A stretch of 13,200 bases of DNA from Bacterioplanes sp. (GTDB lineage: Bacteria; Pseudomonadota; Gammaproteobacteria; Pseudomonadales; Oceanobacteraceae): the NCBI GenBank assembly GCA_014859445.1, contig JACUUC010000046.1:1-13200 (forward strand), written 5' to 3'. This document shows, one piece after another, positions 1 to 13,200 of the stretch (its first letter is position 1; every line of letters starts with the position of its first letter). The notes under the pieces are model-generated. The model was not told where the DNA came from. It was given only the letters and a program-made list of their open reading frames with translations, and did no database searches. The translations under genes and the position numbers were made by a program.

Positions 1-45
1 AGGCTTCTTTCAGCCTGACGGGTTTGCCAGCTTCGCTGGGCAAAC

Positions 46-80
46 AAAAAAAGCCACGGCACGTATGCAGTGGCTTTTTC
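46..80 (-). terminator. Rho-independent (bidirectional-looking) terminator downstream of fadE
   Basis: Arms AAAAAGCCAC (48-57) and GTGGCTTTTT (70-79) are inverted repeats, with an inner GCA/TGC pairing. On the minus strand the GC stem GCCAC...GTGGC is followed by TTTTTTTGTTTG. It lies about 50 nt after the fadE stop codon (132-134). A further imperfect hairpin sits at 22-44 (GTTTGCCAG/CTGGGCAAAC). Confidence 0.8.
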
Positions 81-131
81 TGAGTGGCGTAGATGACCGA
101 TGTTTATTGAGACAGCGGCATCTTGGCTGCC

Positions 132-2579
132 CTAATCGTTGTGCAACACCACTTTGTCTTTGTGACGTGCAGGTTCATCAAAGGCAAAGTCATCCACAAT
201 CAACATATCCAACACTTCCGCTTCGAAGGTTTTCATAAAGGCGGCTTCGTCTGCACTGATCAAACCGGCTTCGGCTGATGCCGCAAATCGTTCCTCAGGA
301 TGCAATGCCGTCATTGGGATATCACCTTGCGCATACGCTTTGCTGGCTATGCGATAAATTGCTTCGGCTTTGTCGTAATCACGCAACAGCGCGTTGTAAC
401 GCGCCAGCGGATTTTCAACAGCACCGTCTTCTTGCGTGTCCCACGTGTCTTCAATCAAGTAGCTGCGCAAAGGCGTATCACTGGAGATGTCGTTGGCAAT
501 GGCCGACGTTAATTCATCTTCGGGCATCGGCCAGCAACGACCGAATGGCATCACAATGGCGCGTAGTTTGAACGCCACCAAACGATTGGGCAGGTTATCC
601 AGCACACCGCACACGGCATTTTCTAAGCGATGCAGTAAAAACGCCGCGCTATAGCGCATCAGAGCTTCTTCACCGGCCACTTTGTTGCCTTCATGCCAGT
701 GCTTTAACACCATCGAGAGCAAGTACAAGTTTGATAAAATATCACCCAAACGCCCAGACAACAGTTCGCGTTGCTTCAGTGTTGCGCCCAGCATAGTCAT
801 TGCCGCGTCGGACAATAGCCCCAAAACGGCACTGAAACGATTCACGGCTTTGGCATACGGAGCGGCGGCCGAATCAAATGGGTTATCGCCCGTGGGCACA
901 CCCAACGCGGCGGTGAAAGCACGTGCAGCGTTGCCCATGATCAAACCGACATGACCAAAGAAGGCGGTATCGAATGCATCAATGTCGTCGTTGTTCTTCG
1001 CTTCTAACTCCGCCAATACCCATGGATGGCAGCGAATAGCCCCTTGACCAAAAATCATCAAGCAGCGCGTCATGATGTTCGCACCCTCAACGGTTATGGC
1101 CACTGGCGTGGCGGAAAAGCCAATACCCAAATAGTTGCGAGGCCCCAGTGTCACCGCACGACCACCATGCACATCCATGGCGTCCATCATGATTTGACGC
1201 TGAAACTCCGTTAACTGGCTTTTCAAAATCGCCGATGGTACGGCCGGTTTTTCGCCGTTATCAATCATGTTAGCGGTTTGTGAAACCGTCGCTCGGGCGA
1301 TGTACGCCATCGACGCCATGCGCGCAAGCGGCTCTTGCACCCCTTCCATATTCGCCACCGAGGTATTGAACTGACGACGAATGCGGGTAAAGCCACCAGA
1401 CCAACCGACCGCATAGCGACCAGAGCCACTGGCACCCGACGGTAAGGTAATGCAGCGACCAACCGACAAACATTCCACCAGCATGCGCCAGCCTTGGCCA
1501 GCCATATCCACACCACCGATGATCCAATCCAAAGGAATGAAGACGTCCTTGCCTTTGATCGGGCCGTTCATAAACGGACTGCCAATGGGGTGGTGGCGAC
1601 GACCAATTTCCATGCCTTTGGTATCACGCGGAATCAAGGCGCAGGTAATGCCAATGTCTTTTTCCTCGCCCAACAGGCCATCAGGGTCAAACATGCGGAA
1701 CGCCAAACCAACCACGGTGGCAACCGGCGCCAAGGTAATCCAACGCTTTTCAAAGTTAAGACGAATGCCCAGAACCTCTTTGCCGTCAAATTCGCCTTTA
1801 CAAACAATGCCGGTATCCGGAATGGAAGTCGCGTCCGAACCGGCGCGAGGCCCAGTTAAACCGAAACAGGGAATTTCACGACCATCAGCCAAACGCGGTA
1901 AGTAATGATTTTTTTGCTCATCGGTGCCGTACTTAACTAATAACTCGCCGGGCCCTAATGAGTTCGGCACACCGACAGTGGACATCAAGGTTTCATTGGC
2001 GGCCAGTTTTTGTAATACCGCCGATTGTGCTTTGGCGGAAAAATGTAAGCCGCCATATTCGGTGGGAATGATCATGCCGAAGAATTTTTCTTTCTTCAAA
2101 AAATCCCACAATTCTTTCGGCATATCAGCGCGCTCAACGCCAATTTCCCAGGCATTGCACATGGAAACGGCTTTTGAACACTGATTGTCTAAAAACGCTT
2201 GTTCTTCGTCGGTTAACCCCGAATACCGATTATCCAGTAACTGATCCCAATTCGGACGCCCTGAAAACAACTGGCCATCCCAACCCACGGTACCGGCATC
2301 CAGCGCGACTTGTTCGGTCGGTGACACTTTAGGGGCGATTTTTTTGAACAAAGAGAAAATTTTCGGCGTCAACCACGTTTTGCGATACGCGGGCAAACCC
2401 GCCACGGCCGTTACACCGGCTCCTATCAAGAAAAGAATGGCCAACAACGGGCTACTGAAATAAAACCCGACAACCGCCAAGGCAATAAGAGCAGCAATGC
2501 TGGCAACAGCCCCTAACTCTCGTCGCAAAATCGTCAGCATGACGACTAGTGCAATACCAATAACCAACAAGTGATTCAT
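132..2579 (-). CDS. fadE: Acyl-CoA dehydrogenase, FadE type (membrane-anchored, about 815 aa)
   Basis: The track ORF starts at TTG 2597. I prefer ATG 2579 (MNHLLVIG...), which is preceded by AAGGAG at about 6 nt. The N-terminus has hydrophobic TM segments, followed by an acyl-CoA dehydrogenase core (..MIIPTEYGGLHFSAKAQSAVLQKLA.., ..CFGLTGPRAGSD..) and a long C-terminal extension. Length and layout match enterobacterial FadE (about 814 aa). Confidence 0.9.
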   Translation of the reverse strand: MNHLLVIGIALVVMLTILRRELGAVASIAALIALAVVGFYFSSPLLAILFLIGAGVTAVAGLPAYRKTWLTPKIFSLFKKIAPKVSPTEQVALDAGTVGWDGQLFSGRPNWDQLLDNRYSGLTDEEQAFLDNQCSKAVSMCNAWEIGVERADMPKELWDFLKKEKFFGMIIPTEYGGLHFSAKAQSAVLQKLAANETLMSTVGVPNSLGPGELLVKYGTDEQKNHYLPRLADGREIPCFGLTGPRAGSDATSIPDTGIVCKGEFDGKEVLGIRLNFEKRWITLAPVATVVGLAFRMFDPDGLLGEEKDIGITCALIPRDTKGMEIGRRHHPIGSPFMNGPIKGKDVFIPLDWIIGGVDMAGQGWRMLVECLSVGRCITLPSGASGSGRYAVGWSGGFTRIRRQFNTSVANMEGVQEPLARMASMAYIARATVSQTANMIDNGEKPAVPSAILKSQLTEFQRQIMMDAMDVHGGRAVTLGPRNYLGIGFSATPVAITVEGANIMTRCLMIFGQGAIRCHPWVLAELEAKNNDDIDAFDTAFFGHVGLIMGNAARAFTAALGVPTGDNPFDSAAAPYAKAVNRFSAVLGLLSDAAMTMLGATLKQRELLSGRLGDILSNLYLLSMVLKHWHEGNKVAGEEALMRYSAAFLLHRLENAVCGVLDNLPNRLVAFKLRAIVMPFGRCWPMPEDELTSAIANDISSDTPLRSYLIEDTWDTQEDGAVENPLARYNALLRDYDKAEAIYRIASKAYAQGDIPMTALHPEERFAASAEAGLISADEAAFMKTFEAEVLDMLIVDDFAFDEPARHKDKVVLHND

Positions 2580-2806
2580 AGTAACTCCTTTCAGCAATTG
2601 AACTGACTTGAATGAGCTTTGACACTAGCAGGAGATGAGAACAGATGCCAGCTGGCCTAATAAGAAAATACGCCAGAGCAAGTCAAGACACGTTATGTCC
2701 ATAGTCAGAAAATCAAGCCCCACCAATTTATGAGCTATACTGATAAAACTCGGGTTAATGAAATCATCATTCACCCACTGCACTACTCCATGGAGGATCG
2801 TCACGC
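2580..2806. promoter_or_regulatory. Divergent intergenic region between fadE and the small ValRS-C-like ORF (promoters not mapped)
   Basis: This is 227 bp of non-coding DNA between two divergent starts that both have good SD sequences. It contains TTGACA (about 2620) and TATACT (about 2737), but these are not at promoter spacing. I found no convincing FadR- or PsrA-type palindrome. Confidence 0.3.
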
Positions 2807-3028
2807 ATGAGCGCACCGTTAACCAAAACCGATGACATACATCACATCCAGACAAAAATTGAGCGCATCGAAAGCGACATTCAACGCATTACCAACAAAC
2901 TCAACAACGATGGCTTTATCGCCAGAGTGCCAGCGGCCATGATTGAAAATGAACAAAAGAAAATGGCTCAGTTTGAGCGGGAAAAACGCGAACTCGAAAT
3001 ACAAATGCGTTTAATCAGTAACGCTTAA
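2807..3028 (+). CDS. Small stand-alone protein resembling the C-terminal coiled-coil domain of valyl-tRNA synthetase
   Basis: ATG 2807 is preceded by GGAGGA (2792-2797, 9-nt spacer). The 73-aa product contains ..IERIESDIQRITNKLNNDGFIARVPAAMIENEQKKMAQFEREKRELEIQ... This follows the remembered ValRS C-terminal pattern (KL-N-x-GF-x-x-[KR]-AP-x-x-V/I-x-x-E-x-x-K, then a heptad coiled coil). No catalytic ValRS sequence lies upstream. Confidence 0.6.
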   Translation: MSAPLTKTDDIHHIQTKIERIESDIQRITNKLNNDGFIARVPAAMIENEQKKMAQFEREKRELEIQMRLISNA

Positions 3029-3085
3029 ATCCACAGACTATCCTCTAAAAAACATCAAACGAGTTTTACTAAGTCCGTCCGCTCG

Positions 3086-3979
3086 CTACTCCAAAAAGCG
3101 CTGCCGGATAGCCCCGCTGACTGCGGTCAGTGGCACGATGATGCTTAGCTCATAGGCCAAGCCAAAATCCTCATCCAAGGCGGCATCGTCGAACCAGATG
3201 CCGTTGCCCACACTTAAATACGACTGCAAAATGGGCGGCAGACGGCAGCCATAGAGCTTGAGCAGTTGCTGCAACTGCCGGATACGCCCGTCTGGGCTCA
3301 ACTCTGCCCAGCCACGGCACTCCAGCGTATGTGCTACCGCGTAATTCAGGCCGGTTTTTGCCATCATCATCGGCTGCGTCGGGGTATACAGCTGCTGGCA
3401 AAACTGCACCATGCAGGCAATGGCTTCTTGACCCAGACTTTGATAGAGCGAAACATTGCCAAAAAAGTACTGCAGCTGTGGGTGGATACGGGCTAAAGCT
3501 CCCAGCCCGGCCCATAACGCAAAGAAACCCAGGACACGGGCCTTAGCACTGGTATTGACCACCGAACGGCCCAGCTCAATGCCATAGGGCAACACCTGGC
3601 TGCAAAAAGCCTTGCTGTAATCAAACAGCTGGCTGGTACGTAACAAGGCATGGCCATGCTGTGCTGCTTGCCATCCTAACTGGTAGCGGTAAATAGCCAC
3701 CAACTCCAACCTAGCCGGATCCCACACCAGCAACTGGTAATAGGCATGTTCACCATAATCCAGTGCGTCCAGATCACGCGCCAGATTACGGCCGGCACCG
3801 GCACTGCGAAACATCAATTCGCGTAAACGGCCAATCTCCAGCATAGTCACTGGGATCCTATCTGCCTGAGCGCTGAATACCAGCAAACCACGAATGCTGG
3901 CAATGGGTTCAAGCTGTGCCAGCTCCTGTGCAATCAACTTAGTCGGCTCGGCGGCTGCAACTGGGCTTACCATCGGCAT
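3086..3979 (-). CDS. GNAT-family N-acyltransferase, OlsB/GlsB-like ('putative hemolysin' COG3176 type)
   Basis: ATG 3979 is preceded by AGGAGGA at 5 nt, inside the 3' end of the upstream gene (41-nt overlap). Motifs: IGRLRELMFRSAGAG..DLDALD..HAYYQLLVWD...LVAIYRY, and later ..IELGRSVV...LWAGLGAL...YFFGNVSLY. These are typical of N-acyl amino acid synthases that pair with a PlsC-like O-acyltransferase. Confidence 0.75.
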   Translation of the reverse strand: MPMVSPVAAAEPTKLIAQELAQLEPIASIRGLLVFSAQADRIPVTMLEIGRLRELMFRSAGAGRNLARDLDALDYGEHAYYQLLVWDPARLELVAIYRYQLGWQAAQHGHALLRTSQLFDYSKAFCSQVLPYGIELGRSVVNTSAKARVLGFFALWAGLGALARIHPQLQYFFGNVSLYQSLGQEAIACMVQFCQQLYTPTQPMMMAKTGLNYAVAHTLECRGWAELSPDGRIRQLQQLLKLYGCRLPPILQSYLSVGNGIWFDDAALDEDFGLAYELSIIVPLTAVSGAIRQRFLE

Positions 3980-5549
3980 CGGGTTCCTCCTGATAAATAG
4001 TGGGTAGTTGATAGCAACGGCGTTTCAACCAGGCGATACGCTGCCGATCGGTTTCGGCCAGAGCGTCCAGTTCGACGACATGCATCGGAATATCAACATA
4101 CAGTCGAGGTGTACGGTTGGCTGGCTTTAGCATTTCCCGTACCAGCAACAGCATTTCCAGATTGGCCTGAATACCCAGACTGGTTCGTAGCCAGGCCAAG
4201 GTATAGAACCAAGTCGAATTCTGACTTTGCAGATGCAACACGGTCAGACTGCGCTGCTGGCGCCTGGCCAATGTCACCGTCAACTTGGACCAATTGCCAT
4301 CGTCCAACTGACCTTTGTTGCTCTTTCTGGCCGTGCGACCAGCCGGAAAAATCAACAGAGGGGCGTCGCTGGCAAAAGCAGCCTGAACCATTGGCAGCGC
4401 ATCTTTAGGCTTGGCAAATACCGGGATCGACACAATGCGCCCAGCCAGCTGCTGCACTTCGGTCAGTACTTCGTTGGCCAGTACCTGCAAATTTGGATAA
4501 CGCTTTTGCAGTACACTGATCAGCAACAAGCCATCAATGCCACCGGTCGGATGGTTGCAGACAAACACCGGCCGGTCTGCAGCTGCCGGCCAGCGGCAGG
4601 CGATGACGTCCGGAGTTAACTGCAAATGCTGCAGGGCTACATCACAAAAGCGCTCAACCGGCAGCCGGTTGAGCCGCTCCAACCTCTGATTTAACGCCTT
4701 TTCCGCCAACAGCCAGCGCAGCAAATCCCACTGCCAGCCTTTTAGTTGGCTGGCTAGCGTTGGGTTATAGCGGCTAAGCAGGGCCTGCACATCCAACCGG
4801 CTGCTAAAATAGTCTTCGGATACTACAGGCTGTTTCAGCGGCAGTTCCAGGCAGTGGCTGGCATCCACCTGATGGGTGGACGGATGCCCATCCCAATACT
4901 GCATACTAATCTTGCCTGCTTCGATAGTCAGTTGTGTGATACTGACGGTCTGTACCTGGCTACGCTGCATGGCAATGCCGCTAAAGGCGCTGAATGGTCC
5001 GGGCCGGCGATGCAGTTGCTGCTGGGTTTGCAGTGACGGTGAGCGGGCCATAGCCCGCTGCCAATGCCAGGCTCTGAGCCTCGGGATCACCCTAGGTAAA
5101 ACACTGGAACTGGATAACGGCGAGTTTGGTGCCAGCTGCTGACGAAGCTGGCTGCCATCCCAATGCCACAGCAGCGGCTCCTGTTGTCCAACAAAGAGCA
5201 GCAAGCGAAAAGGGGCATAGCAGCGTAACTGCTCTGGTTGCAATGAAGCGTCCAGCATTTGCCAGTCCGAGCTATGCGCCAGTGCCCGTAGAAGCAGACC
5301 ACGACTGCGGCGGATAGCGGCATCCGGCTGATACGCGGCAGCATAATCGTTGAGCAGACAAAACACCCGGCCTTGCTCATTGGCCGCTACCCAGCTGCCA
5401 CCACCGTCTGGATCGATGGGGATGACGGCGTCCACACCGTTCTGACTAAAGCGCTGGGGCGCATGCGCCCGGGCGCGGATTTTTCGCTCATCCCGGTTGA
5501 ACAGGATATGCAGCTGTCCTTGCTGGTACCACCAGCTTAGGGTGCACAT
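3939..5549 (-). CDS. Fusion protein: N-terminal NRDE (TANGO2-like) domain plus C-terminal lysophospholipid/aminolipid O-acyltransferase (GlsA/OlsA-like)
   Basis: Continuous 536-aa ORF. Residues 1 to about 235 carry MC(2)TLSWW...ILFNRDER...DPDGGGSWVA...RSRGLL...YAPFRLLLF, the NRDE family signature with the N-terminal Cys. Residues about 245-520 carry ..WDLLRWLLAEKALNQRL.., CNHPTGGIDGLLL (acyltransferase His/Asp block) and LLIFPAGRTARK (FPxG(T/R) block). The start overlaps the DinB gene by 13 nt. Confidence 0.75.
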   Translation of the reverse strand: MCTLSWWYQQGQLHILFNRDERKIRARAHAPQRFSQNGVDAVIPIDPDGGGSWVAANEQGRVFCLLNDYAAAYQPDAAIRRSRGLLLRALAHSSDWQMLDASLQPEQLRCYAPFRLLLFVGQQEPLLWHWDGSQLRQQLAPNSPLSSSSVLPRVIPRLRAWHWQRAMARSPSLQTQQQLHRRPGPFSAFSGIAMQRSQVQTVSITQLTIEAGKISMQYWDGHPSTHQVDASHCLELPLKQPVVSEDYFSSRLDVQALLSRYNPTLASQLKGWQWDLLRWLLAEKALNQRLERLNRLPVERFCDVALQHLQLTPDVIACRWPAAADRPVFVCNHPTGGIDGLLLISVLQKRYPNLQVLANEVLTEVQQLAGRIVSIPVFAKPKDALPMVQAAFASDAPLLIFPAGRTARKSNKGQLDDGNWSKLTVTLARRQQRSLTVLHLQSQNSTWFYTLAWLRTSLGIQANLEMLLLVREMLKPANRTPRLYVDIPMHVVELDALAETDRQRIAWLKRRCYQLPTIYQEEPDADGKPSCSRRAD

Positions 5550-6028
5550 CGTTTGTGATACTCTTGGGTCGAGCTGTGCACACCGGCATCCTCTGGCCAG
5601 GGGTAGCCCCAGGGATCCAGCATGGCATGGATCAACGCCAGATGATGCACTGCATGGCTGGCAACAAAATCCAGCTCACGCTGCAGGCTGGTGTAGGTGG
5701 TGCCTTCGGCAAATTGATAGCTCAGCTGGGTATCCAGCTCATCGGTTTCCAAGCACTTCAGCCAGCTTTGCAAACGCTCTATCCAATGCAACGCTTTTTG
5801 CGGATCGCTTTGCACGCCTTCATCTCGCAACCGCAGCCGGTAGTCCAGCTGCTGACTGTTCGATGCCAGCCACAGCTGCTGGTAGTGATCCAACACATGA
5901 CGAATATGTTTGCCGACTGAAGGCTCACCGGGCCAGTCTTTGACCTGCCGGTAATGTTCAGGCTGCACCTGCCGTAGAATAAGACGGATAAAGTCCAACT
6001 GGTGCAGGTTTTGTTCAATCACCGTCAT
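5537..6028 (-). CDS. DinB-fold (DinB_2/YfiT-like) putative metal-dependent protein
   Basis: 163 aa. The N-terminal helix motif VGKHIRHVLDHYQQL and the C-terminal FVASHAVHHLALIHAML fit the His-triad pattern of the DinB superfamily. It overlaps the upstream gene by 14 nt and the downstream gene by 13 nt. Confidence 0.7.
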   Translation of the reverse strand: MTVIEQNLHQLDFIRLILRQVQPEHYRQVKDWPGEPSVGKHIRHVLDHYQQLWLASNSQQLDYRLRLRDEGVQSDPQKALHWIERLQSWLKCLETDELDTQLSYQFAEGTTYTSLQRELDFVASHAVHHLALIHAMLDPWGYPWPEDAGVHSSTQEYHKRCAP

Positions 6029-6263
6029 GCGATTCTGTCCTTTGAATGGTTAAATCGTTTAGCCGCTGTTTGGCGGCACTGTAACTGGCGACCGAGAAGG
6101 GCACCAAGTAATTCAGTAGGATCAGGCCAAAGCGCCAGGGTGCTTCACCGGCAATAGCTTCCCATTGATTGATTAGGTTCAGCAAAGTCCCCACCACAAG
6201 TGCCACCTTAATGGCATTGCTGAACACCTCGGGATGGCGTAATTGTTGCAAAAAGTCTTTCAT
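6015..6263 (-). CDS. Small two-TM membrane protein, NrtS-like (putative nitrate/nitrite transporter family)
   Basis: 82 aa. IKVALVVGTLLNLINQ...LILLNYLVPFSVASYSA resembles the remembered NrtS family signature. There is an ATGA start/stop overlap with the HD-GYP gene. The functional assignment is tentative. Confidence 0.5.
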   Translation of the reverse strand: MKDFLQQLRHPEVFSNAIKVALVVGTLLNLINQWEAIAGEAPWRFGLILLNYLVPFSVASYSAAKQRLNDLTIQRTESHDGD

Positions 6264-7183
6264 CCGCGAGCAAACCTGACCAGTTGTTCCAGCGGGATAT
6301 GCGACACCGACTCCTCAATCAACCGCTTAATTAATAGTTTATCTGCTTTAGGTTGCAGTTGCTGGGCCGAAACCTTGCGACCGGTTGGCTTGACCGTCCA
6401 TTGGTCGTGCTCAGCACACAACTCCATCTCGCTGTGACAGACACCACAAGCCAACAGATCACCCGGTTTGTCCTCGCTGTGTTGCAGTACCGTCGGACCA
6501 CAGTGCGGACAGGTGTGCAAGGGAATGCCATAATCACTGTGCCCCATAATGGCATCCACTTCACCTCGTTCAGCCAACGCCAGCAAATGGTTGCACCAGA
6601 ACTGGTTAAACTGTCGGCCGGACTCCTCACGCAGAATACCAAGCACTTTTTCCAATGGCATAGGTTTGCGGTAGGAGCGTAAACTGGTCATGGCATCAAA
6701 GGCATCACATACCCCGATGATGGCCGCATCGGTTGGGATCATGCTGGCAGTCAGGCCATGCGGATAGCCACGACCATCCGGCCGCTCGTGGTGCAACTCG
6801 ACCGCAGCGGCGACCAGATGCCCTAGCGGATGCCCTGCCAGCATGCGGCCACCAGCCTCCGGGTGCGTTTGGATCACAGCAAACTCACTGTCATTCAACT
6901 TGCCGGTCTTATTTAAAATTGCATCTGGGATGGCGACTTTGCCCAGATCATGCAAAAAACCGCCGAGCGTCACCCGGGCAATATCGGCCTCCGGCAAACC
7001 ACCGGCTCTGGACAATAAATTGGCATAACGCGACACCCGCCACAAATGTCCGCCGGTGTAGGGATCTTTGGCTTCCACAAACCAGGCCATCACCATCAGA
7101 CTGGCCAACAGATCTTTGCTTAACTGACCGGCATCCGCCGGTAACGCTTTTTCTGCTTGAAACTGTTGAAACCATCTGAGCAT
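6260..7183 (-). CDS. HD-GYP domain c-di-GMP phosphodiesterase with C-terminal CxxC...CxxC zinc-ribbon extension
   Basis: ATG 7183 is preceded by a GGGGG SD at 5 nt. Motifs: GGFLHDLGKVAIPDAILNKTGKL (HD), HHERPDGRGYPHGL (GYP), VCDAFDAMTSLRSYR. The C-terminal extension carries HTC225PHC228...AC246GVC249HSEMELC256. Confidence 0.85.
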   Translation of the reverse strand: MLRWFQQFQAEKALPADAGQLSKDLLASLMVMAWFVEAKDPYTGGHLWRVSRYANLLSRAGGLPEADIARVTLGGFLHDLGKVAIPDAILNKTGKLNDSEFAVIQTHPEAGGRMLAGHPLGHLVAAAVELHHERPDGRGYPHGLTASMIPTDAAIIGVCDAFDAMTSLRSYRKPMPLEKVLGILREESGRQFNQFWCNHLLALAERGEVDAIMGHSDYGIPLHTCPHCGPTVLQHSEDKPGDLLACGVCHSEMELCAEHDQWTVKPTGRKVSAQQLQPKADKLLIKRLIEESVSHIPLEQLVRFARG

Positions 7184-7210
7184 GATAGCCCCCTGTTAAG
7201 TTAACCCTGC

Positions 7211-7663
7211 TTATCTTTTTGCGTGAATCTTCAAAAGCTTAGCAAAAGACTCCCGCTTGACTGCATCGGCCAGATCATCTTTGCAAAAATACAGCACTGT
7301 ACCAGCCTGTCCGGGCTGGGCTGAACCAATCACCTGGCCAGCGGCAGCAATGGCTGCCGCTGCGTGATGCTGCTGCATCAGATGCAAAATAGTCTTTTGC
7401 ACCCGCTCCAATGGCAGCAAACTGGCAAACACCACCGGCAGGCTTGGCTTAAGCTGACGTATTGCCAACAGCATCTCTTCGGCCGACTGCGGCAGCGGCG
7501 ACGACAAAGCCAAAGAAATAACGGCAACATCGGCGTTGGCCAGTTCGTCATTCAGCGCATCCAGCTGTGACAGACGGTTAAAACTAAAACCCTGCTGCTG
7601 CAGAAAAGGAGCCATCTCACTAACAATAAAAGGATGGGGCCTGGCAAGTAAAATATGTGGCAT
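7211..7663 (-). CDS. Hypothetical protein (150 aa), first gene of the operon; possibly a receiver-like alpha/beta fold lacking the acidic pocket
   Basis: ATG 7661-7663 has TAGGAAAAA upstream, and the gene ends 27 nt before the HD-GYP gene. I recognised no family signature. The alternating hydrophobic strand/helix pattern (HILLARPHPFIV.., DVAVISLAL.., LPVVFASLL..) loosely resembles a CheY-like fold, with Ser where the phospho-Asp would be. Confidence 0.5.
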   Translation of the reverse strand: MPHILLARPHPFIVSEMAPFLQQQGFSFNRLSQLDALNDELANADVAVISLALSSPLPQSAEEMLLAIRQLKPSLPVVFASLLPLERVQKTILHLMQQHHAAAAIAAAGQVIGSAQPGQAGTVLYFCKDDLADAVKRESFAKLLKIHAKR

Positions 7664-7757
7664 GATTTTTCCTAAGGTTGAATTGTAGTTGCATTGTGCT
7701 GCAAACTGCTTAGGCTAAAGGATTCATTAATCTTAGGAAGTTCTGCTGCGTACCACA
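7664..7757. promoter_or_regulatory. Divergent promoter region between the six-gene operon and the AraC-family gene
   Basis: 94 bp between divergent ATGs. It contains a TACAAT -10-like hexamer on the minus strand (7687-7682) and the inverted repeat TTGCA-N6-TGCAA (7689-7704). There are three CTTAGG/CCTAAG copies (7671-7676 inverted, 7709-7714, 7732-7737). Confidence 0.4.
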
Positions 7758-7793
7758 ATGACCAAAACACCGGCCTTATCTACCGAAACACCA
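7753..7793 (+). promoter_or_regulatory. Direct-repeat pair of the ACCAAAACACCG motif overlapping the AraC start codon (candidate operator/activator site)
   Basis: CCACAATGACCAAAACACCG (7753-7772) matches 11898-11917 at 18/20 positions. A degenerate second copy, ACCGAAACACCA, lies at 7782-7793, exactly 21 bp downstream. This is the same spacing as copies 1 and 2 in the bufA/trx intergenic region. Confidence 0.55.
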
Positions 7794-8678
7794 GAAGCCT
7801 TAGAACAGTTATTAGCACAATTGGCTTTTGGCTCGGAGCTGCATTTTGAGTCTGGCTTTTGTGACCACTGGAACCTGCTCACCACCAAATCCAGCAAAGC
7901 AGCCCTTCATGTGGTGACGCAGGGCCAACTTTGGATGGCGATTCCTGGTCGGCTTCAGGAACAAGTGCTACTGGAAGCCGGCGATGCTATTTTTTTCAGC
8001 CACAGTTTCCGGCATTGGCTAAGCGACGAGCCAGTGGATGAACACACCAGCGAAGTCGACTTTGCCAACTTCTGTGTGCCCAATCATGTTGAACGTGGTC
8101 TGGTCTGCTACGACATTGCGGTCGAATCCCCTCTCACCGCCAATCTGTTTCAGGTGATGCCGGACTACATTCACCTGCCTGCCAACCAGCAGTCCGGACG
8201 GCTCAGTCCACTGGTGCAACTAATCCAGCAAGAAGCCAAATCCCGTCAGCCTGGTTATCAGGCGGCTATCAGTCGCTTGAGCGATGTGGTGGTGTTGCAC
8301 TTGTTGCGTCAGGTGCTCAGTGACGACAGCATGCAACAAGGCCTGCTGGCAGCACTAAAAGATCCGGCGCTACGCCGGGTGCTACTGGCCATTATGGATG
8401 AACCGGGCGCTAACTGGACGGTGGAAAGCATGGCCGCTCTGGCTTTTTTGTCCAAAAGCGCCTTTGCCGAGCGCTGCCATAAAGTGATGGCTATGACTGC
8501 AAAAGCCTTGTTGGATAAGCTTAGGCTACAACGCTGCCGTTATCTGCTTATCCATACAGAGCTGAGTCTAGAACTCATTGCCGAACAAATTGGCTATCAA
8601 TCAGCAACGGCATTTATCCGCTTTTTTAAGCAACAAGAAAGCTTATCGCCCGGCGAATTCAGAGCATTGCATAACTAA
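7758..8678 (+). CDS. AraC/XylS-family transcriptional regulator with N-terminal cupin (AraC-binding-like) domain
   Basis: 306 aa. The N-terminal part (ALHVVTQGQLWMAIPG...LLEAGDAIFFSHSFRHWLSD) is cupin-like. The C-terminal dual HTH includes ..WTVESMAALAFLSKSAFAERCHKVM.. and ..LIAEQIGYQSATAFIRFFKQQESLSPGEFR. It is divergent from the 7663 operon. Confidence 0.85.
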   Translation: MTKTPALSTETPEALEQLLAQLAFGSELHFESGFCDHWNLLTTKSSKAALHVVTQGQLWMAIPGRLQEQVLLEAGDAIFFSHSFRHWLSDEPVDEHTSEVDFANFCVPNHVERGLVCYDIAVESPLTANLFQVMPDYIHLPANQQSGRLSPLVQLIQQEAKSRQPGYQAAISRLSDVVVLHLLRQVLSDDSMQQGLLAALKDPALRRVLLAIMDEPGANWTVESMAALAFLSKSAFAERCHKVMAMTAKALLDKLRLQRCRYLLIHTELSLELIAEQIGYQSATAFIRFFKQQESLSPGEFRALHN

Positions 8679-9241
8679 TCGCTGCCAGCTCCTCCTGTAG
8701 CGCGCGCTTCAGACAGTGAAAAGGATTTAACACGCTCAAACGGCAAGTGATCTCCTTCATCGGTACCATAATACGCCATACTAATACGTCCATTGCGGTC
8801 GATAAGAAAATCTGCTGGCATAGTGGTCATGCGGCCTTTGATGCCCAGCGGCAGATAACCGCGCATCATAGCTCTAAGCAGAGTCGGCATGCGTAATAGC
8901 ATGCCCTTCACCACGCCCAGCAGTGAATACTCAATACCGTATTCCCAGTAGAATTGATTGCTCTCATCCGCCAGCACCGCAAAAGGCGCTTTATGACCGC
9001 TCGCATGATGCTGCAGATTATCCAGCGGCGAGTCAAATACCGCGACAATAGTGAAGTCGTCGGCAAATTCATTGAAGCGGGACACTAATTCATGCATGCG
9101 CAGATTGCAAAACGGACAACTGGCAAAGCGAAAGAAAGACAGCATAAAAGGTCGCCCCTCCAGACTTCTCGTGTCAAACAGCTGGCCATCAAGTGCTGGC
9201 AACATGACGTGCGTCAGCTTATCTCCGGGTTGACGTTTCAT
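8675..9241 (-). CDS. Peroxiredoxin-like / AhpC-TSA (redoxin) family protein, CPFC motif, no signal peptide
   Basis: ATG 9241 is preceded by AAGGAG at 7 nt. It has a thioredoxin-fold signature: RPFMLSFFRFASCPFCNLRMHEL...IVAVFDS...FAVLADE...PADFLIDRNG. It is the last gene of the DUF2282 operon. Its stop codon overlaps the stop codon of the convergent AraC gene. Confidence 0.75.
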   Translation of the reverse strand: MKRQPGDKLTHVMLPALDGQLFDTRSLEGRPFMLSFFRFASCPFCNLRMHELVSRFNEFADDFTIVAVFDSPLDNLQHHASGHKAPFAVLADESNQFYWEYGIEYSLLGVVKGMLLRMPTLLRAMMRGYLPLGIKGRMTTMPADFLIDRNGRISMAYYGTDEGDHLPFERVKSFSLSEARATGGAGSD

Positions 9242-9286
9242 GACATAACTCCTTTTAGTAATTTTTAGTTAACTGCAGCTGAAGCA

Positions 9287-9823
9287 TTACGACCGTTTTT
9301 CAAGCCCCAGCCAGCGATCCAGCGAAAACAATCCTGGGCCGCGCGCGAGCAACATCAATAATAATGCCGCCCACCAGGCCGCAGGATTCCAAAAATGTGT
9401 CCAATCCGGATAAACGGCAAATTGAATAAAAAGGGTCATGCCCAGTAAACCCAATGCAGCAAAACGGCTAAATAGTCCCAGGATTAATAGCAATGGCAGC
9501 AGCACTTCCACCACACCTGCAGTTATTGCCATCGTTTCAGCCAGCCATTGGCCGAAAGCGCCCTCAGAGTATTCCAGCGTATCGGCATCGCACAATAACA
9601 AAGCACCGGGCCGAACAGGGTCCGGACAGAAAAATTCGTACATAAAAAGTTCGTATTTATTAACGTCAAACTGTAAAAAGCCATCCCATTTTGACAGGCC
9701 AGATTGTAAGAAAACCCGGGCCACCAACAAGCGCAACGCCAGCAAAGCAAGTGGCTCCAGCCAGCGCTGTAAAAACTGAGCTAATTGGTAGTAACGTGTC
9801 TGAATAGAAGTAACGAAAGTCAT
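9287..9823 (-). CDS. DoxX-family membrane protein (BufD/HvfX/GigT-like component of DUF692 RiPP clusters)
   Basis: ATG 9823 is preceded by AAGGAG at 7 nt. 178 aa with multiple TM helices. LALRLLVARVFLQSGLSKW is a DoxX signature. It sits immediately downstream of the DUF2063 gene (20-nt gap). Confidence 0.8.
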   Translation of the reverse strand: MTFVTSIQTRYYQLAQFLQRWLEPLALLALRLLVARVFLQSGLSKWDGFLQFDVNKYELFMYEFFCPDPVRPGALLLCDADTLEYSEGAFGQWLAETMAITAGVVEVLLPLLLILGLFSRFAALGLLGMTLFIQFAVYPDWTHFWNPAAWWAALLLMLLARGPGLFSLDRWLGLEKRS

Positions 9824-9843
9824 CAGTGGACTCCTTTAAAGCG

Positions 9844-10620
9844 TTAACGTATGCACAGCAGACCATGCTGTAACAACCCGGCAAAGCTGCCGCTGACATC
9901 GAAATGCTCATCCACCCTGAGAGCTGCAGATACCGCATCATGCAGGCAACAAGACTGAGTATTTAAAGCTTGCAGAAAGTGCCATTCTGCGGCAGACAAT
10001 ACCCGATACTGCAATGTATGATCGGCTTGTCGCCATAGCGCCCGACGGTTATGCTCTAAAGCAACCGTCGCCTGCTGCTGATAGCTGGGATCATCACGTT
10101 GCTGTACCCACAATGTCCAAACATCAAAATGCGTTTCAAGCAGTTCAACGCTTGAACACAATCCTAGTTTGAGCTTTTCAATATTGGTTCCCGCGTTGGC
10201 CAAATGCGAGATATCCTCCGCCGAAACTGCTTTTTGATCCTCGGCCAGCAAGCAATTCAGCCAACAACGTTCTAGCCTAGCCAGATCGCTCAACCACGGG
10301 CACTGATGTCGGGGCAACTGCGTTTGCAACCAATCAGGAAATTGCTGACCATACCAGGCCAGCACGGCATGCTCAGGCCGATGAATAAAAACATAATCTC
10401 TGGCCAATTGGCGGAACTGCTCGTCTGCCAACACCGAGCCACTGACAGGAAAGTTGTCAGCTAAAGCCTGCACTGATGCCTTCATGCTGCTGTTGCGATA
10501 CACTTGCAATCGTCGCCAATCTTCAGGTTTAGCTTGTAACCAGTGAGCCAGCGTGGTCTCAGCTTCACCTTGCAAATATGCAATAAACTGCTGATAAAAA
10601 TGAGGCTTAGCCTGCTGCAT
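9844..10620 (-). CDS. DUF2063-family protein (BufC/HvfC-type partner of the MNIO enzyme)
   Basis: 258 aa. The start overlaps the DUF692 gene by 14 nt. The N-terminal QQFIAYL...RLQVYRNS...L.DNFP region is typical of DUF2063. Its position directly 3' of DUF692 is the canonical pairing. Confidence 0.75.
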   Translation of the reverse strand: MQQAKPHFYQQFIAYLQGEAETTLAHWLQAKPEDWRRLQVYRNSSMKASVQALADNFPVSGSVLADEQFRQLARDYVFIHRPEHAVLAWYGQQFPDWLQTQLPRHQCPWLSDLARLERCWLNCLLAEDQKAVSAEDISHLANAGTNIEKLKLGLCSSVELLETHFDVWTLWVQQRDDPSYQQQATVALEHNRRALWRQADHTLQYRVLSAAEWHFLQALNTQSCCLHDAVSAALRVDEHFDVSGSFAGLLQHGLLCIR

Positions 10621-11479
10621 CTGCTATCTCCAGATAAGGTCGCAACACGGCATGAAGCCGCTCTCGCTCATTCAGTAAATCATCCAGAGCAGGAATACGA
10701 TCATCCCACTCCAATAACACGGGCCTCGGACCAAATCGCTGTAAGGCATAATCCAGTAAATTCAGGATGTCTTCTTGTGGTGCGTGATCGTGGCTATCAA
10801 TCAACAAACGATTGCCTTCAACCGGATCGGCTGAAAAACCTGCCACATGCAGCTCACCGACTAAATGCGCAGGGATTTGATCCAAATATTGCTTAGCATC
10901 CACACCACAATTGGTTTGGCTCAGGTATAAATTGGTTATGTCCAGCAACAAACCACAGCCGGTCCGTTGTGTTAACTCCACCATAAAATCAGCTTCATGC
11001 ATTTCATGCTGAAGCCCAACATAGTGGGTGGGGTTCTCGAGCAAAATAGCTCTGCCAATCGCTTCCTGATACTGATGTACTCCGTCCGCTAATTGCTGCA
11101 AGGCTGCCCGAGTTCGTGGAAAAGGCAATAAATCTGCAAAATATGCGTGCTGCACTCCTGACCACACCGCATGCTCAGAAATCAACGTTGGCTGAATGTT
11201 ATCTACCAGTGCTTTAACCCAAGACAGGTACTGAGTGCTGAGGGGTTCCGGCCCACCAAGAGAAGCACCAACACCATGTAGGCTAAGCGGAAATCGTTCC
11301 GCCATCGCCTGCAGAGCTGCCAGCCTAATTCCGCCGATGCCACAATAGTTTTCCGTATGCACTTCATACCAGATCCCTTTTGAAGCAACATCCAGTACCT
11401 CTGGATAGTGCTGAAGCTTAAGGCTTATACCAGTACTAAGCACGGATCCTGGCAGGCTGTTTGCGTTAAAATCTGCCAT
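10607..11479 (-). CDS. DUF692 / MbnB-like multinuclear non-heme iron oxidase (MNIO) RiPP maturase
   Basis: 290 aa. Motifs: GISLKLQHY...WYEVHTENY...PLSLHGVGASLGG...ISEHAVW...DLLPFPRT...AILLENPTHY...GCGLLLDITNLY...GELHVAGF...LIDSHDH...PVLLEWDD. This is the TIM-barrel DUF692 signature. Its start codon shares one nucleotide with the precursor stop codon (TGATG). Confidence 0.9.
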   Translation of the reverse strand: MADFNANSLPGSVLSTGISLKLQHYPEVLDVASKGIWYEVHTENYCGIGGIRLAALQAMAERFPLSLHGVGASLGGPEPLSTQYLSWVKALVDNIQPTLISEHAVWSGVQHAYFADLLPFPRTRAALQQLADGVHQYQEAIGRAILLENPTHYVGLQHEMHEADFMVELTQRTGCGLLLDITNLYLSQTNCGVDAKQYLDQIPAHLVGELHVAGFSADPVEGNRLLIDSHDHAPQEDILNLLDYALQRFGPRPVLLEWDDRIPALDDLLNERERLHAVLRPYLEIADAAG

Positions 11480-11844
11480 CAGGAGTTGTTACGATCCAGT
11501 TCAGATTTCGATGCCTGACCGTGTGGGGTGATGACATACTCGCAAACCCCTCTTGGAGTGAAAGTCCAAGCGTTGCCTTGAAAATCAATAGTTGATGAAC
11601 CTTCACAGCTAGTGCCAGCTCCGGCCCGGCAATCGTTCTGCCCCGCCAGGGCAATGCCATAGCATTTGTCACGGCGGCCCCGTACTCGCTCGCCGGCCAT
11701 CCATGTTTCAAAGTTTTGTTGCACCGCCTCAGGCGCATTTTCTGCCAGGCTAAGTTGAGCATTCGGTCCAGCCTGTGCCACACCCACAGCACTAGCCATA
11801 GCTACACCTGCCAGCAATAATTTGGTTAAGTTAGGTTGTTTCAT
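11479..11844 (-). CDS. DUF2282 / BufA1-type secreted Cys-containing RiPP precursor (bufferin-like metallophore)
   Basis: ATG 11844 is preceded by AGGAGA at about 7 nt. It has a Sec signal peptide ([25 protein letters not shown]|G). The core [43 protein letters not shown] carries four Cys (residues 61, 72, 80, 101; codons at 11662-11664, 11629-11631, 11605-11607, 11542-11544). This matches the DUF2282 pattern. Confidence 0.85.
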
Positions 11845-11897
11845 GTGTATTTCTCCTGTTGTGAATACACTTAAAGTCTAGTCAAGTCGTGCAAGAG

Positions 11898-11938
11898 CCA
11901 CACTAACCAAAACACCGCAGCAATCGACCAAAACACTT
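11898..11938 (+). promoter_or_regulatory. Two direct copies of ACCAAAACAC(CG) spaced 21 bp, upstream of bufA1 (candidate regulator binding sites)
   Basis: Copy 1 is CCACACTAACCAAAACACCG (11898-11917). Copy 2 is ACCAAAACAC (11927-11936). The core starts at 11907 and 11928, so the spacing is 21 bp. The sites lie 54-94 bp upstream of the bufA1 ATG. Confidence 0.55.
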
Positions 11939-11961
11939 TAACTACCACTGAACAAAACGAA

Positions 11962-11974
11962 CCGGTGTTTTGGT
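11962..11974 (-). promoter_or_regulatory. Inverted third copy of the motif (ACCAAAACACCGG on the minus strand), upstream of trx-ccdA
   Basis: The plus strand CCGGTGTTTTGGT (11962-11974) is the reverse complement of ACCAAAACACCGG, an exact 13-mer match to 7761-7773. It is embedded in the imperfect palindrome AACAAAAC-N8-GTTTTGGT (11951-11974) and lies about 91 bp upstream of the trx ATG. Confidence 0.5.
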
Positions 11975-12064
11975 GGATTCAACGGGTGCGGTGGTTAATG
12001 ACGAAAATCCTTATCTCTCTCACACTGGTTGGCGAATCATCCACAACCTGAAGAGGACTTCTTT

Positions 12065-12496
12065 ATGAAAACCATGATTAATGTCGCGATTGCAGTCATC
12101 TCCCTGGCTGCAGCCGCTTTTTTCCTGCTGAGCCCGGCCAATGCTTCCACCGAGCATCTGCTCAAACACAAACAAGCCTTTACTGAAACCTCGTTTCGGC
12201 AAGCGCAAGCTGAAAACCGACTGATTTTGATCGATGTGTATGCGCCCTGGTGCCCGACCTGTCGCCGCCAGCACACCGTTTTAAATGATTATTTTGCCCA
12301 CAACCCCAACAGCGACATCCTGGTGCTGCAAGTGGATTTTGATAACCAGAAAGACTGGGTCACTTACTTCAAAGCGCCACGTCAGTCAACTCTGGTGTTG
12401 TATCGTGGTGAAGAGCAACTTTGGTTCAGTGTGGCCCAAACCCTTGAAAGTACCATCTTTGCCGAACTGAAAAAACACGACCAGGGCGCGGACTGA
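12065..12496 (+). CDS. Secreted/anchored thioredoxin-family protein (WCPTC active site)
   Basis: The track ORF begins at TTG 12029. I prefer ATG 12065, with AAGAGGA (12051-12057) 7 nt upstream. It has a signal peptide (MKTMINVAIAVISLAAAAFFLLSPANA|S) and a thioredoxin motif (LIDVYAPWCPTCRRQ). Confidence 0.8.
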   Translation: MKTMINVAIAVISLAAAAFFLLSPANASTEHLLKHKQAFTETSFRQAQAENRLILIDVYAPWCPTCRRQHTVLNDYFAHNPNSDILVLQVDFDNQKDWVTYFKAPRQSTLVLYRGEEQLWFSVAQTLESTIFAELKKHDQGAD

Positions 12497-12498
12497 TT

Positions 12499-13200
12499 AT
12501 GGAATTTACCGCCATCCCACTGGCACTGATAGCAGGCGTGCTGAGCCTGTTATCACCTTGCGTTCTGCCGATGATACCGGCGGTTACGGCATCGGCCATG
12601 CGGGCATCCAAAACCGGTGTCTGGTTTTTGGCTGCTGGCCTCGCCTTTACCTTTGCTCTGGGTGGCTCTTTGCTGACCTACCTGCTGCTCAGCGCCGGTT
12701 TATCGCCCGATATTATGCGTACCTTTGCCGCAGTCTTTATGCTGGTGATGGGGTTGGTGCTGGTGGTTGGCTGGCTGAATCAGCAATTTAGTCTGCTGTT
12801 GTCACGCCTGACTAGCCGGTTACCTGCTGGCGGCCAGTTGGCAGACTCCTCAGACCGCCCAGTCTTTCAGTTTGTGATCGGTGGCTCTTTGGGCCTGGTC
12901 TGGCTACCGTGCGTAGGACCCACGCTAGGTGCTGCCATTGCGCTGGCATCGACCGGGCAGAATATTCTGATGTCGTTTACCGTCATGCTTGCTTTTGGAC
13001 TTGGTACAGCGCTGCCTTTAGTTGGTATAGGCTATGCCGCAGGCACAAAACTCAGCACCCTTCGCACTTCAGGCAAAGTTGGCAGATTGCTGCTCGGCTA
13101 TGCGTTATTACTGATCGCACTAATGATATTTACCGGCTTTGACAAAGTGATGGAGACGTGGGCTATTAAGCATCTTCCAGACTGGGCAACGACCATATAA
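12499..13200 (+). CDS. ccdA: CcdA/DsbD-family transmembrane thiol-disulfide electron transporter
   Basis: 233 aa and polytopic. The two hallmark Cys-Pro motifs are LSLLSPCVLPMIP and WLPCVGPTLG. It starts 2 nt after the trx stop codon, and the complete ORF ends with TAA at 13198-13200. Confidence 0.85.
   Translation: MEFTAIPLALIAGVLSLLSPCVLPMIPAVTASAMRASKTGVWFLAAGLAFTFALGGSLLTYLLLSAGLSPDIMRTFAAVFMLVMGLVLVVGWLNQQFSLLLSRLTSRLPAGGQLADSSDRPVFQFVIGGSLGLVWLPCVGPTLGAAIALASTGQNILMSFTVMLAFGLGTALPLVGIGYAAGTKLSTLRTSGKVGRLLLGYALLLIALMIFTGFDKVMETWAIKHLPDWATTI

Follow-up and report, generated by a model that had tools for sequence, protein, structure and literature searches.

AraC of Escherichia coli binds 17 bp half-sites that are direct repeats 4 bp apart, and at the araBAD promoter the araI2 half-site overlaps a poor -35 element (PMC2241862, PMC11983282). 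Here we describe a 13,200 nucleotide stretch of DNA from Bacterioplanes sp. (GenBank assembly GCA_014859445.1, contig JACUUC010000046.1, positions 1 to 13,200 of the forward strand), referred to below as the window, in which three predicted promoters carry tandem pairs of a 17 bp unit in the same geometry. The window encodes an AraC-family regulator (7758..8678, plus strand) with a Cupin_6 N-terminal domain and two helix-turn-helix (HTH) motifs, distantly similar to RclR. We suggest that the repeated motif is probably the operator of this adjacent regulator. One of the three pairs lies inside the coding sequence of the regulator itself, over its start codon.

Closest described systems

The pairs in the window resemble araI1-araI2 of araBAD in having two 17 bp direct repeat half-sites, a 4 bp gap and a 21 bp period (PMC2241862, PMC11983282). 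As at araBAD, the proximal half-site would reach the -35 region of a predicted promoter with a poor -35 element, and the regulator gene is divergent from a putative target operon. XylS at Pm is a further system similar to AraC at araI1-araI2. The half-site sequence is unrelated to that of AraC, and we saw no sign here of a distant O2-type looping site or of a CRP site. In place of the arabinose binding AraC_binding domain, the regulator has a Cupin_6 sensor domain. The operator of the divergent operon lies inside the regulator coding sequence instead of in a long intergenic region, and one regulator is proposed to serve three promoters in the locus.

RclR is an AraC-family activator specific for reactive chlorine. 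In brief, it is activated by a C21-C89 disulfide, E. coli rclR is divergent from rclABC, and RclR of Pseudomonas aeruginosa induces a peroxiredoxin, RclX (PMC7464077). The regulator in the window has the same domain architecture, a divergent gene arrangement and putative redox or copper-linked envelope targets. An AhpC-like gene ends the bufferin (buf) operon here, which is reminiscent of the peroxiredoxin induced by P. aeruginosa RclR (PMC7464077), and two relatives of the regulator in Idiomarina (loci L054 and L087) are encoded near a flavoprotein disulfide reductase fusion. RclR differs in having no N-terminal tail, a 225 bp intergenic region and other target genes. The E. coli rclR-rclA intergenic region contains no similar motif, only an unrelated repeat with a 20 bp period, and the operator sequence is therefore not shared with RclR. 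This E. coli K-12 repeat, CGyyTGATATTTT (positions 5079-5115 of locus L055), is direct, lies approximately 80-115 bp upstream of rclA and may be a candidate RclR site.

Rns/CfaD of enterotoxigenic E. coli is an AraC-family protein that, as proposed for the regulator described here, has sites downstream of its own promoter. According to Munson and Scott 2000, as cited in PMC2579436, Rns autoregulation uses sites downstream of its own transcription start. The predicted fold of our regulator matches Rns and ToxT. Rns, however, uses its own sites for positive autoregulation, and these are not arranged as tandem 21 bp pairs that also serve a divergent promoter as its class II site. We know of no description of a dual-coding constraint on the Rns N-terminal peptide.

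A Buf1 type bufferin cluster is defined by a DUF2282 precursor with a signal peptide, an MNIO (DUF692) protein, a DUF2063 partner and a DoxX protein (PMC11626156, PMC12452194). The window contains the same four genes, bufA-bufB-bufC-DoxX, as known bufferin clusters, which are linked to copper or metal stress (PMC11626156). The published bufferin regulators are the extracytoplasmic function (ECF) sigma factor pair SigF/NrsF and BvgAS; here, we found an AraC-type pair of units and no sigma/anti-sigma gene. Our literature search, which included the bufferin papers, revealed no link between bufferins and AraC-type regulators, thioredoxin or DsbD.

A 17 bp unit paired at three promoters

Alignment of the promoter regions of the window and of 12 orthologous loci defined a 17 bp unit with the consensus CCGGTGTTTTGGTTGAT, read towards the regulated gene; the motif repeated in the window is the core of this unit. 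The window has three tandem pairs (7794..7757 and 11939..11902 on the minus strand, 11962..11999 on the plus strand) with a common layout of unit, 4 bp, unit, 21 nt and a -10-like hexamer TAnnnT. Each pair consists of direct repeats with 21 bp periodicity and is oriented towards the gene it is predicted to regulate. In the promoter alignments the -10-like hexamers, e.g. TACACT, TAGACT, TAAGCT and TATGGT, are found exactly 21 nt past the pair.

At the divergent promoter, the distal unit CTGGTGTTTCGGTAGAT (7778..7794, minus strand) covers codons 7-13 of the regulator gene and is kept in 18/20 orthologous loci. The proximal unit CCGGTGTTTTGGTCATT (7757..7773, minus strand) holds codons 2-6 and the regulator ATG (7758-7760), and the predicted -10 element TAAGAT of the operon starting at 7663 (7730..7735, minus strand) lies 21 nt past it. 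The bufA promoter has a distal unit AAAGTGTTTTGGTCGAT (11923..11939), a proximal unit GCGGTGTTTTGGTTAGT (11902..11918) and, again 21 nt past the latter, a predicted -10 element TAGACT (11875..11880), all on the minus strand. On the plus strand, the trx promoter has the unit that is best conserved across genomes, the distal unit CCGGTGTTTTGGTGGAT (11962..11978), followed by a degenerate proximal unit CGGGTGCGGTGGTTAAT (11983..11999) that reads CCGTTGyTyTGGCTGAT in most orthologues. Its predicted -10 element, CACACT (12021..12026), is likewise 21 nt past the proximal unit and is TACACT in most orthologues.

An earlier note on this DNA had described the motif as a 13 bp repeat. The repetition holds, the size does not, since the unit is 17 bp long. 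The copies it listed are correct as given, and the degenerate second unit on the trx side (11983-11999) was missing from its list. The 13-mer ACCAAAACACCGG is found exactly at 7761-7773 (plus strand) and at 11962-11974 in minus strand reading, and the 20-mers 7753-7772 and 11898-11917 are identical at 18 of 20 positions. A second copy, ACCGAAACACC at 7782-7792, is offset from the first by 21 bp, the same distance that separates the buf copies at 11906 and 11927. Each of the two sets reads ACCAAAACAC on the plus strand, upstream of minus strand operons, and thus has the orientation that had been claimed for it.

An independent repeat search of the window recovered the same regions. It gave a 39 nt direct repeat, 7753-7791 and 11898-11936, with 77% identity, and the longest inverted repeat of the window was formed by the buf and trx copies (11901-11936 and 11965-12000). 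Allowing one mismatch, ACCAAAACAC has five copies in the window, all in the divergent-promoter and buf/trx regions. The sequence GGTGTTTYGGT, also with at most one mismatch, gave five matches against 0.41 expected, and none of 200 dinucleotide shuffles of the window reached five. With at most three mismatches, the 17-mer CCGGTGTTTTGGTTGAT gave four matches against 0.04 expected (0/200 shuffles reached four). All of these matches are confined to the two regions that the earlier note had named. It should be noted that CCGGTGTTTTGGTTGAT is literally the distal trx unit of eight other genomes; with its query taken from other genomes, this test is less circular than the position weight matrix (PWM) scan described below. 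The repetition of the motif is confirmed as real and far beyond chance.

A consensus scan of the divergent and buf/trx regions found no full sigma-70 promoter in either, as expected for activator-dependent promoters, and the -10 elements were therefore assigned from conservation. Among 41 pairs in 19 loci, TAnnnT is present at offset 21 in 35, and each other offset from 0 to 59 has it in six or fewer. When the -35/-10 spacer is taken as 17-18 nt, the proximal unit overlaps the -35 hexamer of the predicted promoters by 2-3 bp. A terminator-like match at 7786-7770 is the unit pair itself and was disregarded.

Only 94 bp separate the regulator gene from its divergent neighbour, and for this reason the pair of the divergent promoter sits within the regulator's own gene, over the ATG and codons 2-13. 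The alignments point to a candidate promoter of the regulator gene, TTGCAT-N16-TAGGCT (7689..7716, plus strand), that faces the divergent promoter. It reads TTGCAA-N16-TAGACT in most orthologues and scores under the threshold of the consensus scanner. The predicted transcription starts of the regulator gene and of the divergent operon are both at approximately 7723, in opposite directions. Judged by these hexamers, the two facing promoters should therefore exclude each other.

The pair inside the regulator coding sequence

In an alignment of 13 close orthologues, none of the other 294 windows of 13 codons has a third-position entropy as low as that of codons 1-13 (0.48 vs a gene mean of 1.04; 294 windows in total), whereas in amino acid variability these codons are ordinary, ranking 149th of 294. 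At codon 7, which specifies Leu, Gln or Pro, the third base is always A, and this A is the final base of the distal unit. Variation falls in the 4 nt spacer and at unit positions 2 and 14; the same positions are variable at the non-coding trx pair. Over the 38 positions, the variability of the coding-sequence pair correlates with that of the trx pair (Spearman 0.50, p = 0.0015); for the two distal units the coefficient is 0.62. The earlier note had considered that the match might merely reflect a conserved T-K-T-P coding sequence. This does not fit third positions that are the most conserved in the gene while amino acid variability is average, nor locus L086, where the units are absent (see below). 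Judging from these alignments, the pair in the coding sequence is under selection at the DNA level.

The peptide encoded by the putative operator is M-TKTP-ALS-TETP. Relatives down to approximately 45% identity have a peptide repeat, T-[KEQ]-T-[PT] ... T-[KEQ]-T-[PT], with 7-residue spacing, which is the translation of two units 21 bp apart. In an AlphaFold model (mean predicted local distance difference test, pLDDT, of 85), pLDDT stays under 50 for residues 1-11, and the first helix begins with residue 14. Neither E. coli RclR nor the distant homologues P0038-P0041 share the N-terminal peptide in our alignment.

On the sequence, the regulator gene can start only at the ATG at 7758: no start codon precedes it in the open reading frame, none occurs in codons 2-13, and the Cupin_6 match begins as early as residue 14. 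We found no Shine-Dalgarno sequence within 5-12 nt of this ATG (7740-7760); the nearest candidate, AGGAAG, is 18 nt upstream. Three orthologues (L002, L005 and L006) have no Shine-Dalgarno sequence at all before the regulator gene. A known RNA element was also considered as the identity of the motif and rejected, as an Rfam scan gave no family match.

Conservation across orthologous loci

The comparison covered the window and 19 further loci of approximately 20 kb each, in which orthologues of the regulator have 45-95% identity. A genome scan with the regulator protein gave 12 orthologous loci with 75-95% identity (Alkalimonas, Arsukibacterium, Alishewanella and Rheinheimera). A protein search gave relatives down to 45% identity in Idiomarina and allies, and six of those loci were compared.

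The layout unit-4-unit-21-TAnnnT is identical at the three promoters of the window and in the 12 orthologous genomes, and the 17+4+17 geometry is found at every pair in the 20 loci. A pair lies in the regulator coding sequence, over the start codon, in 18/20 loci; it is degenerate in L054 and absent from L086. Upstream of trx, a pair is present in all 16 of the trx-containing loci that were scored by PWM, and all six loci with a buf operon have one upstream of bufA. The motif thus co-occurs with the orthologous operons, as the earlier note had expected of a shared site. Strong paired-unit PWM matches occur only at these promoters in 229 kb of window and locus sequence, which speaks for specificity and not for discovery. 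The proposal of a single regulon draws its support from this comparison, with pairs recurring at orthologous promoters and DNA constraint within a coding sequence.

The pairs appear to follow the promoters when the genes are rearranged. In loci L052 (63% identity) and L088 (59%), the regulator gene lies between the divergent gene and trx-dsbD, and both promoters have a pair. In L053 (54%), orf150, orf82, DinB and the aminolipid genes are on one side and HD-GYP followed by trx-dsbD on the other; one pair is in the regulator coding sequence and one before HD-GYP, and a third, spotted by eye, precedes trx, 21 nt upstream of TACGAT. Locus L087 (46%) has orf150 opposite the regulator and, in addition, a buf operon whose own pair precedes TAATCT by 21 nt. 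An Alkalimonas-like contig from a metagenome scan, L083, has the same three promoters as the window.

Two loci depart from this pattern. In L086 (49%), a GGDEF gene on the same strand ends 15 bp before the regulator gene and there is no divergent gene. The N-terminal coding sequence of its regulator, VKQKKLDNDEATL, has no units, while the pair of its trx promoter is kept, 21 nt upstream of TAAAAT. We regard L086 as an informative exception that would serve as a natural control, with units absent from the coding sequence when there is no divergent gene. In L054, a pair at 6937-6974 lies just past the stop codon of the regulator gene and points back to the regulator, away from the next gene.

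The units drift jointly within a genome. TTTTGGT is replaced by TTTTAGT in Idiomarina and by yTGT in L053, in each case at several promoters simultaneously. Such joint drift plausibly fits one cognate protein, with too few clades for proof. Alignments inspected by eye for covariation of recognition helix residues with unit drift likewise contain too few independent clades for any claim that goes further than this joint drift.

A metagenome scan with the tandem core GTGTTTYGGT-N3-T-N6-GGTGTTTYGGT gave 30 loci, of which only L083 is a relative, and no new targets. The remaining 29, which are unrelated satellites or coding repeats that recur every 21 nt, were rejected. Among them, L057, L061, L065, L070, L072-L074 and L085 are long tandem arrays on metagenome contigs with a period of approximately 21 nt (GGTGTTTTGGTAAnTGTGTGG). 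These contigs apparently come in part from the same few sample series and carry no homologous genes. The arrays share the motif core by chance.

The AraC-family regulator

The regulator has 306 residues, of which residues 1-13 form a predicted unstructured tail encoded by the putative operator. A domain search gave Cupin_6, HTH_18 (1.8e-17) and HTH_AraC (3.1e-11). The C-terminal domain with two HTH motifs (PF12833/PF00165) places the protein in the AraC/XylS family, and its predicted model matches full-length ToxT, Rns and CsvR as well as isolated AraC-type DNA-binding domains. The best NCBIfam match is RclR (NF040475) with 95.8 bits against a cut-off of 400, and the identity to E. coli RclR is 28% over 256 residues. 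By these two values, the regulator is not an RclR orthologue.

Of its cysteines, C117 occupies the alignment column of RclR C89 and is kept without exception in 38 homologues, C106 is aligned with C86, and C35, which is conserved in the clade, is three alignment columns from C21. Across the 20 loci, the regulator is the only DNA-binding protein that is conserved beside all three promoters.

Proposed regulation and alternative explanations

The earlier note had named the AraC-family protein as the most economical binder. Two observations make it the likely one: the 17+4+17 geometry abutting the -35 region, and its place as the only conserved DNA-binding neighbour of the three promoters. From the likeness to araI1-araI2 we infer class II activation by a regulator dimer at all three promoters. 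In brief, a dimer would occupy both units of a pair, each unit taking one monomer with its two HTH motifs. The proximal unit would abut the weak -35 region of each predicted promoter, and the bound regulator would recruit RNA polymerase as AraC does at araI1-araI2. The regulator gene would be transcribed less when the coding-sequence pair is occupied and polymerase sits on the facing promoter of the divergent operon. Counted from the candidate promoter at 7689-7716, regulator bound at approximately +35 to +71 of its own transcript would hinder that transcript. Such negative autoregulation is suggested by the positions of the predicted hexamers.

The putative targets plausibly point to a response to oxidant, thiol or copper-linked envelope stress, because they include an exported thioredoxin with a DsbD-type conduit, a copper-binding bufferin, an AhpC-like protein, DinB and aminolipid synthesis. 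The signal may be oxidative, thiol or copper-linked stress, sensed through the conserved cysteines as in RclR. The regulator, trx-dsbD and the divergent genes stay together at 46-95% identity while accessory genes shuffle.

Several points weigh against the proposal that the adjacent regulator binds the units as an activator. The identity of the binder is drawn from colocalisation and geometry, and the -10 elements and transcription starts are predictions made on the basis of conserved hexamers. Because the 20 loci share phylogenetic descent, the counts overstate independence; the PWM scan is partly circular, its matrix having been built from the same sites; and the regulon survey spans locus-sized stretches. 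At 28% identity and 95.8 against 400 bits, the analogy with RclR is weak, and RclR C21 has no exactly aligned cysteine in the regulator. Finally, a simple class II activator model would not explain the orientation of the L054 pair at 6937-6974.

Shared cis-elements prove co-regulation alone, and the units could be genuine and shared but bound by another transcription factor encoded elsewhere, with the AraC-family gene merely a neighbour and possibly a target. We consider this unlikely, as the regulator is the sole DNA-binding gene beside the promoters in 20 loci, over 46-95% identity, while other genes shuffle, and as a direct repeat of two 17 bp sites with a 4 bp gap at the -35 region is the signature of an AraC-type dimer. 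The conserved GGT blocks, compared inside a unit and from one unit to the next, are spaced 8 and 13 bp apart, whereas tandem sites of the OmpR/PhoB type have a regular 10-11 bp period, and domain annotation of the locus gave no ECF sigma factor, anti-sigma factor or two-component genes. Somewhat less probable still is a mainly repressive role, in which the adjacent regulator, bound to the units, would keep polymerase off the three promoters and shut down its own transcript until a signal released it. Dual regulators do occur among AraC-family proteins, and at approximately +35 to +71 from the candidate promoter the pair is within the transcribed region of the regulator, a repressive position. 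The three promoters, however, have no recognisable full -35/-10 pair, for which an activator should be needed; the proximal unit ends at the -35 region and does not cover the -10 element or start site of the predicted promoters; and RclR, the closest characterised relative, is an activator (PMC7464077).

That the 7753-7793 copy is a conserved N-terminal coding feature or an mRNA feature of translation initiation, with only a coincidental likeness to the buf and trx copies, seems to us very improbable. The motif does lie within codons 2-12, reduced synonymous change is common in 5' coding regions, and where a Shine-Dalgarno sequence is lacking, an A-rich unstructured start might matter. Yet the amino acids vary where the DNA is constant, with L, Q or P at codon 7 and always a final A, and the variability profile tracks that of the non-coding trx pair. 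The register, the 21 bp spacing and the -10 element at offset 21 are common to the non-coding pairs, L086 has no units where the divergent gene is absent, the four matches to the 17-mer compare with 0.04 expected by chance, and no Rfam family matches. We give the least credence of all to small mobile or repetitive extragenic palindromic (REP)-like copies scattered in intergenic DNA without promoter function. Several similar copies do occur within one 13 kb window, and the metagenome scan showed that the core can form 21 nt satellites elsewhere, but those satellites are unrelated loci without homologous genes. In the locus, every unit belongs to an oriented pair with a constant distance to the -10-like hexamer of a specific gene, the repeats are direct and not hairpin-forming palindromes, and one pair lies inside a coding sequence with the reading frame kept.

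With the adjacent regulator as the probable binder, a precise operator, in sequence, spacing and three promoters, is proposed for Cupin_6/RclR-like regulators, for which we found no base-level binding site in the literature searched. Operators made of AraC-type direct repeats are known already; of interest here are an operator embedded in, and shaping, the N-terminal coding sequence of its probable regulator, and a bufferin cluster in the proposed regulon. For bufferin operons, this proposes an AraC-type control input beyond SigF/NrsF and BvgAS and, if true, one without mention in the bufferin papers searched. It also defines a compact, shuffling gene set (trx-dsbD, DinB-aminolipid genes, orf150, HD-GYP and buf) that probably serves one envelope stress response. 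The regulator gene would be a clean natural example of a protein-coding sequence constrained by a transcription factor site, in which the operator dictates a disordered N-terminal peptide, and a caution that regulatory DNA can underlie conserved N-terminal "motifs" and synonymous constraint.

We tentatively put forward a more detailed account, of which we are doubtful as a whole: that an RclR-like AraC clade wrote its operator into the first 13 codons of its own gene, and that one thiol/oxidant switch presides over a bufferin ribosomally synthesised and post-translationally modified peptide (RiPP), thioredoxin/DsbD, aminolipids and a cyclic di-GMP phosphodiesterase. If this were true, a single DNA segment would supply the start codon and encode the N-terminal tail, and would also act as the class II site of the facing promoter and hold back regulator synthesis.

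Gene content of the operons

The loci suggest a refinement of the regulon. Its conserved core would be trx-dsbD together with a divergent gene set of orf150 and/or the DinB-aminolipid genes, and, judged by their distribution, the buf operon, HD-GYP, orf82 and the AhpC-like genes are accessory, being present in some loci and missing from others. A separate pair stands at each accessory promoter (buf in 6/6 loci, HD-GYP in L053).

The trx-dsbD operon (12065..13200, plus strand) is divergent from bufA and runs off the window. It encodes an exported thioredoxin and a DsbD/CcdA-type membrane electron transporter.

The bufferin operon (8675..11844, minus strand) is convergent with the regulator gene. 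In brief, it encodes bufA (DUF2282), bufB (MNIO), bufC (DUF2063), DoxX and an AhpC/SelL-like redox protein. The Buf1 families PF10048, PF05114, PF09836 and PF07681 are all present, and the DUF2282 precursor has a signal peptide and a Cys-containing core. A buf operon is found in 6/20 loci; in every case it lies between the regulator and either trx or HD-GYP and has a unit pair of its own. The AhpC/SelL-related gene (8675-9241, minus strand) ends the operon only in the window and in L003, and overlaps the regulator stop codon by 4 nt.

The divergent operon (3086..7663, minus strand) has six genes: orf150, HD-GYP, the NrtS-like orf82, DinB and two aminolipid acyltransferase genes. Of the latter, one encodes a TANGO2/NRDE domain fused to a GlsA/OlsF-like O-acyltransferase, and it is followed by one for a GlsB/OlsF-like N-acyltransferase. 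The fusion (lyso-aminolipid O-acyltransferase) and the N-acyltransferase, at 3939-5549 (minus strand), constitute an aminolipid synthase pair with an unusual N-terminal domain that is conserved beside DinB in most loci. The HD-GYP gene relocates: it is part of the divergent operon in the window, is found at 7031-7969 with its own pair (6934-6971) in L053, and is divergent from bufA at 11148-12056 in L087.

The product of orf150 (7211-7663, minus strand) has no Pfam or NCBIfam match. It is a recurrent divergent partner of the regulator, even in the Idiomarina loci L054 and L087 (46% identity). Its single-sequence AlphaFold model is poor (mean pLDDT 46.5) and has a beta-alpha-beta-alpha pattern like a receiver or flavodoxin fold. 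In L054 (983-5440) and L087 (342-5416), the genes after the orf150 homologue encode a TonB-dependent receptor and a protein in which a DedA/VTT domain is fused to a pyridine nucleotide-disulfide reductase that is reminiscent of RclA. Domain annotation gave no rclABC homologue among the genes of the window.

At the start of the window, just downstream of an acyl-CoA dehydrogenase gene, a 17 bp hairpin lies between an A run and a T run at 45-82 (CAAAAAAAGCCACGGCA / TGCAGTGGCTTTTTCTG) and looks like a bidirectional terminator.

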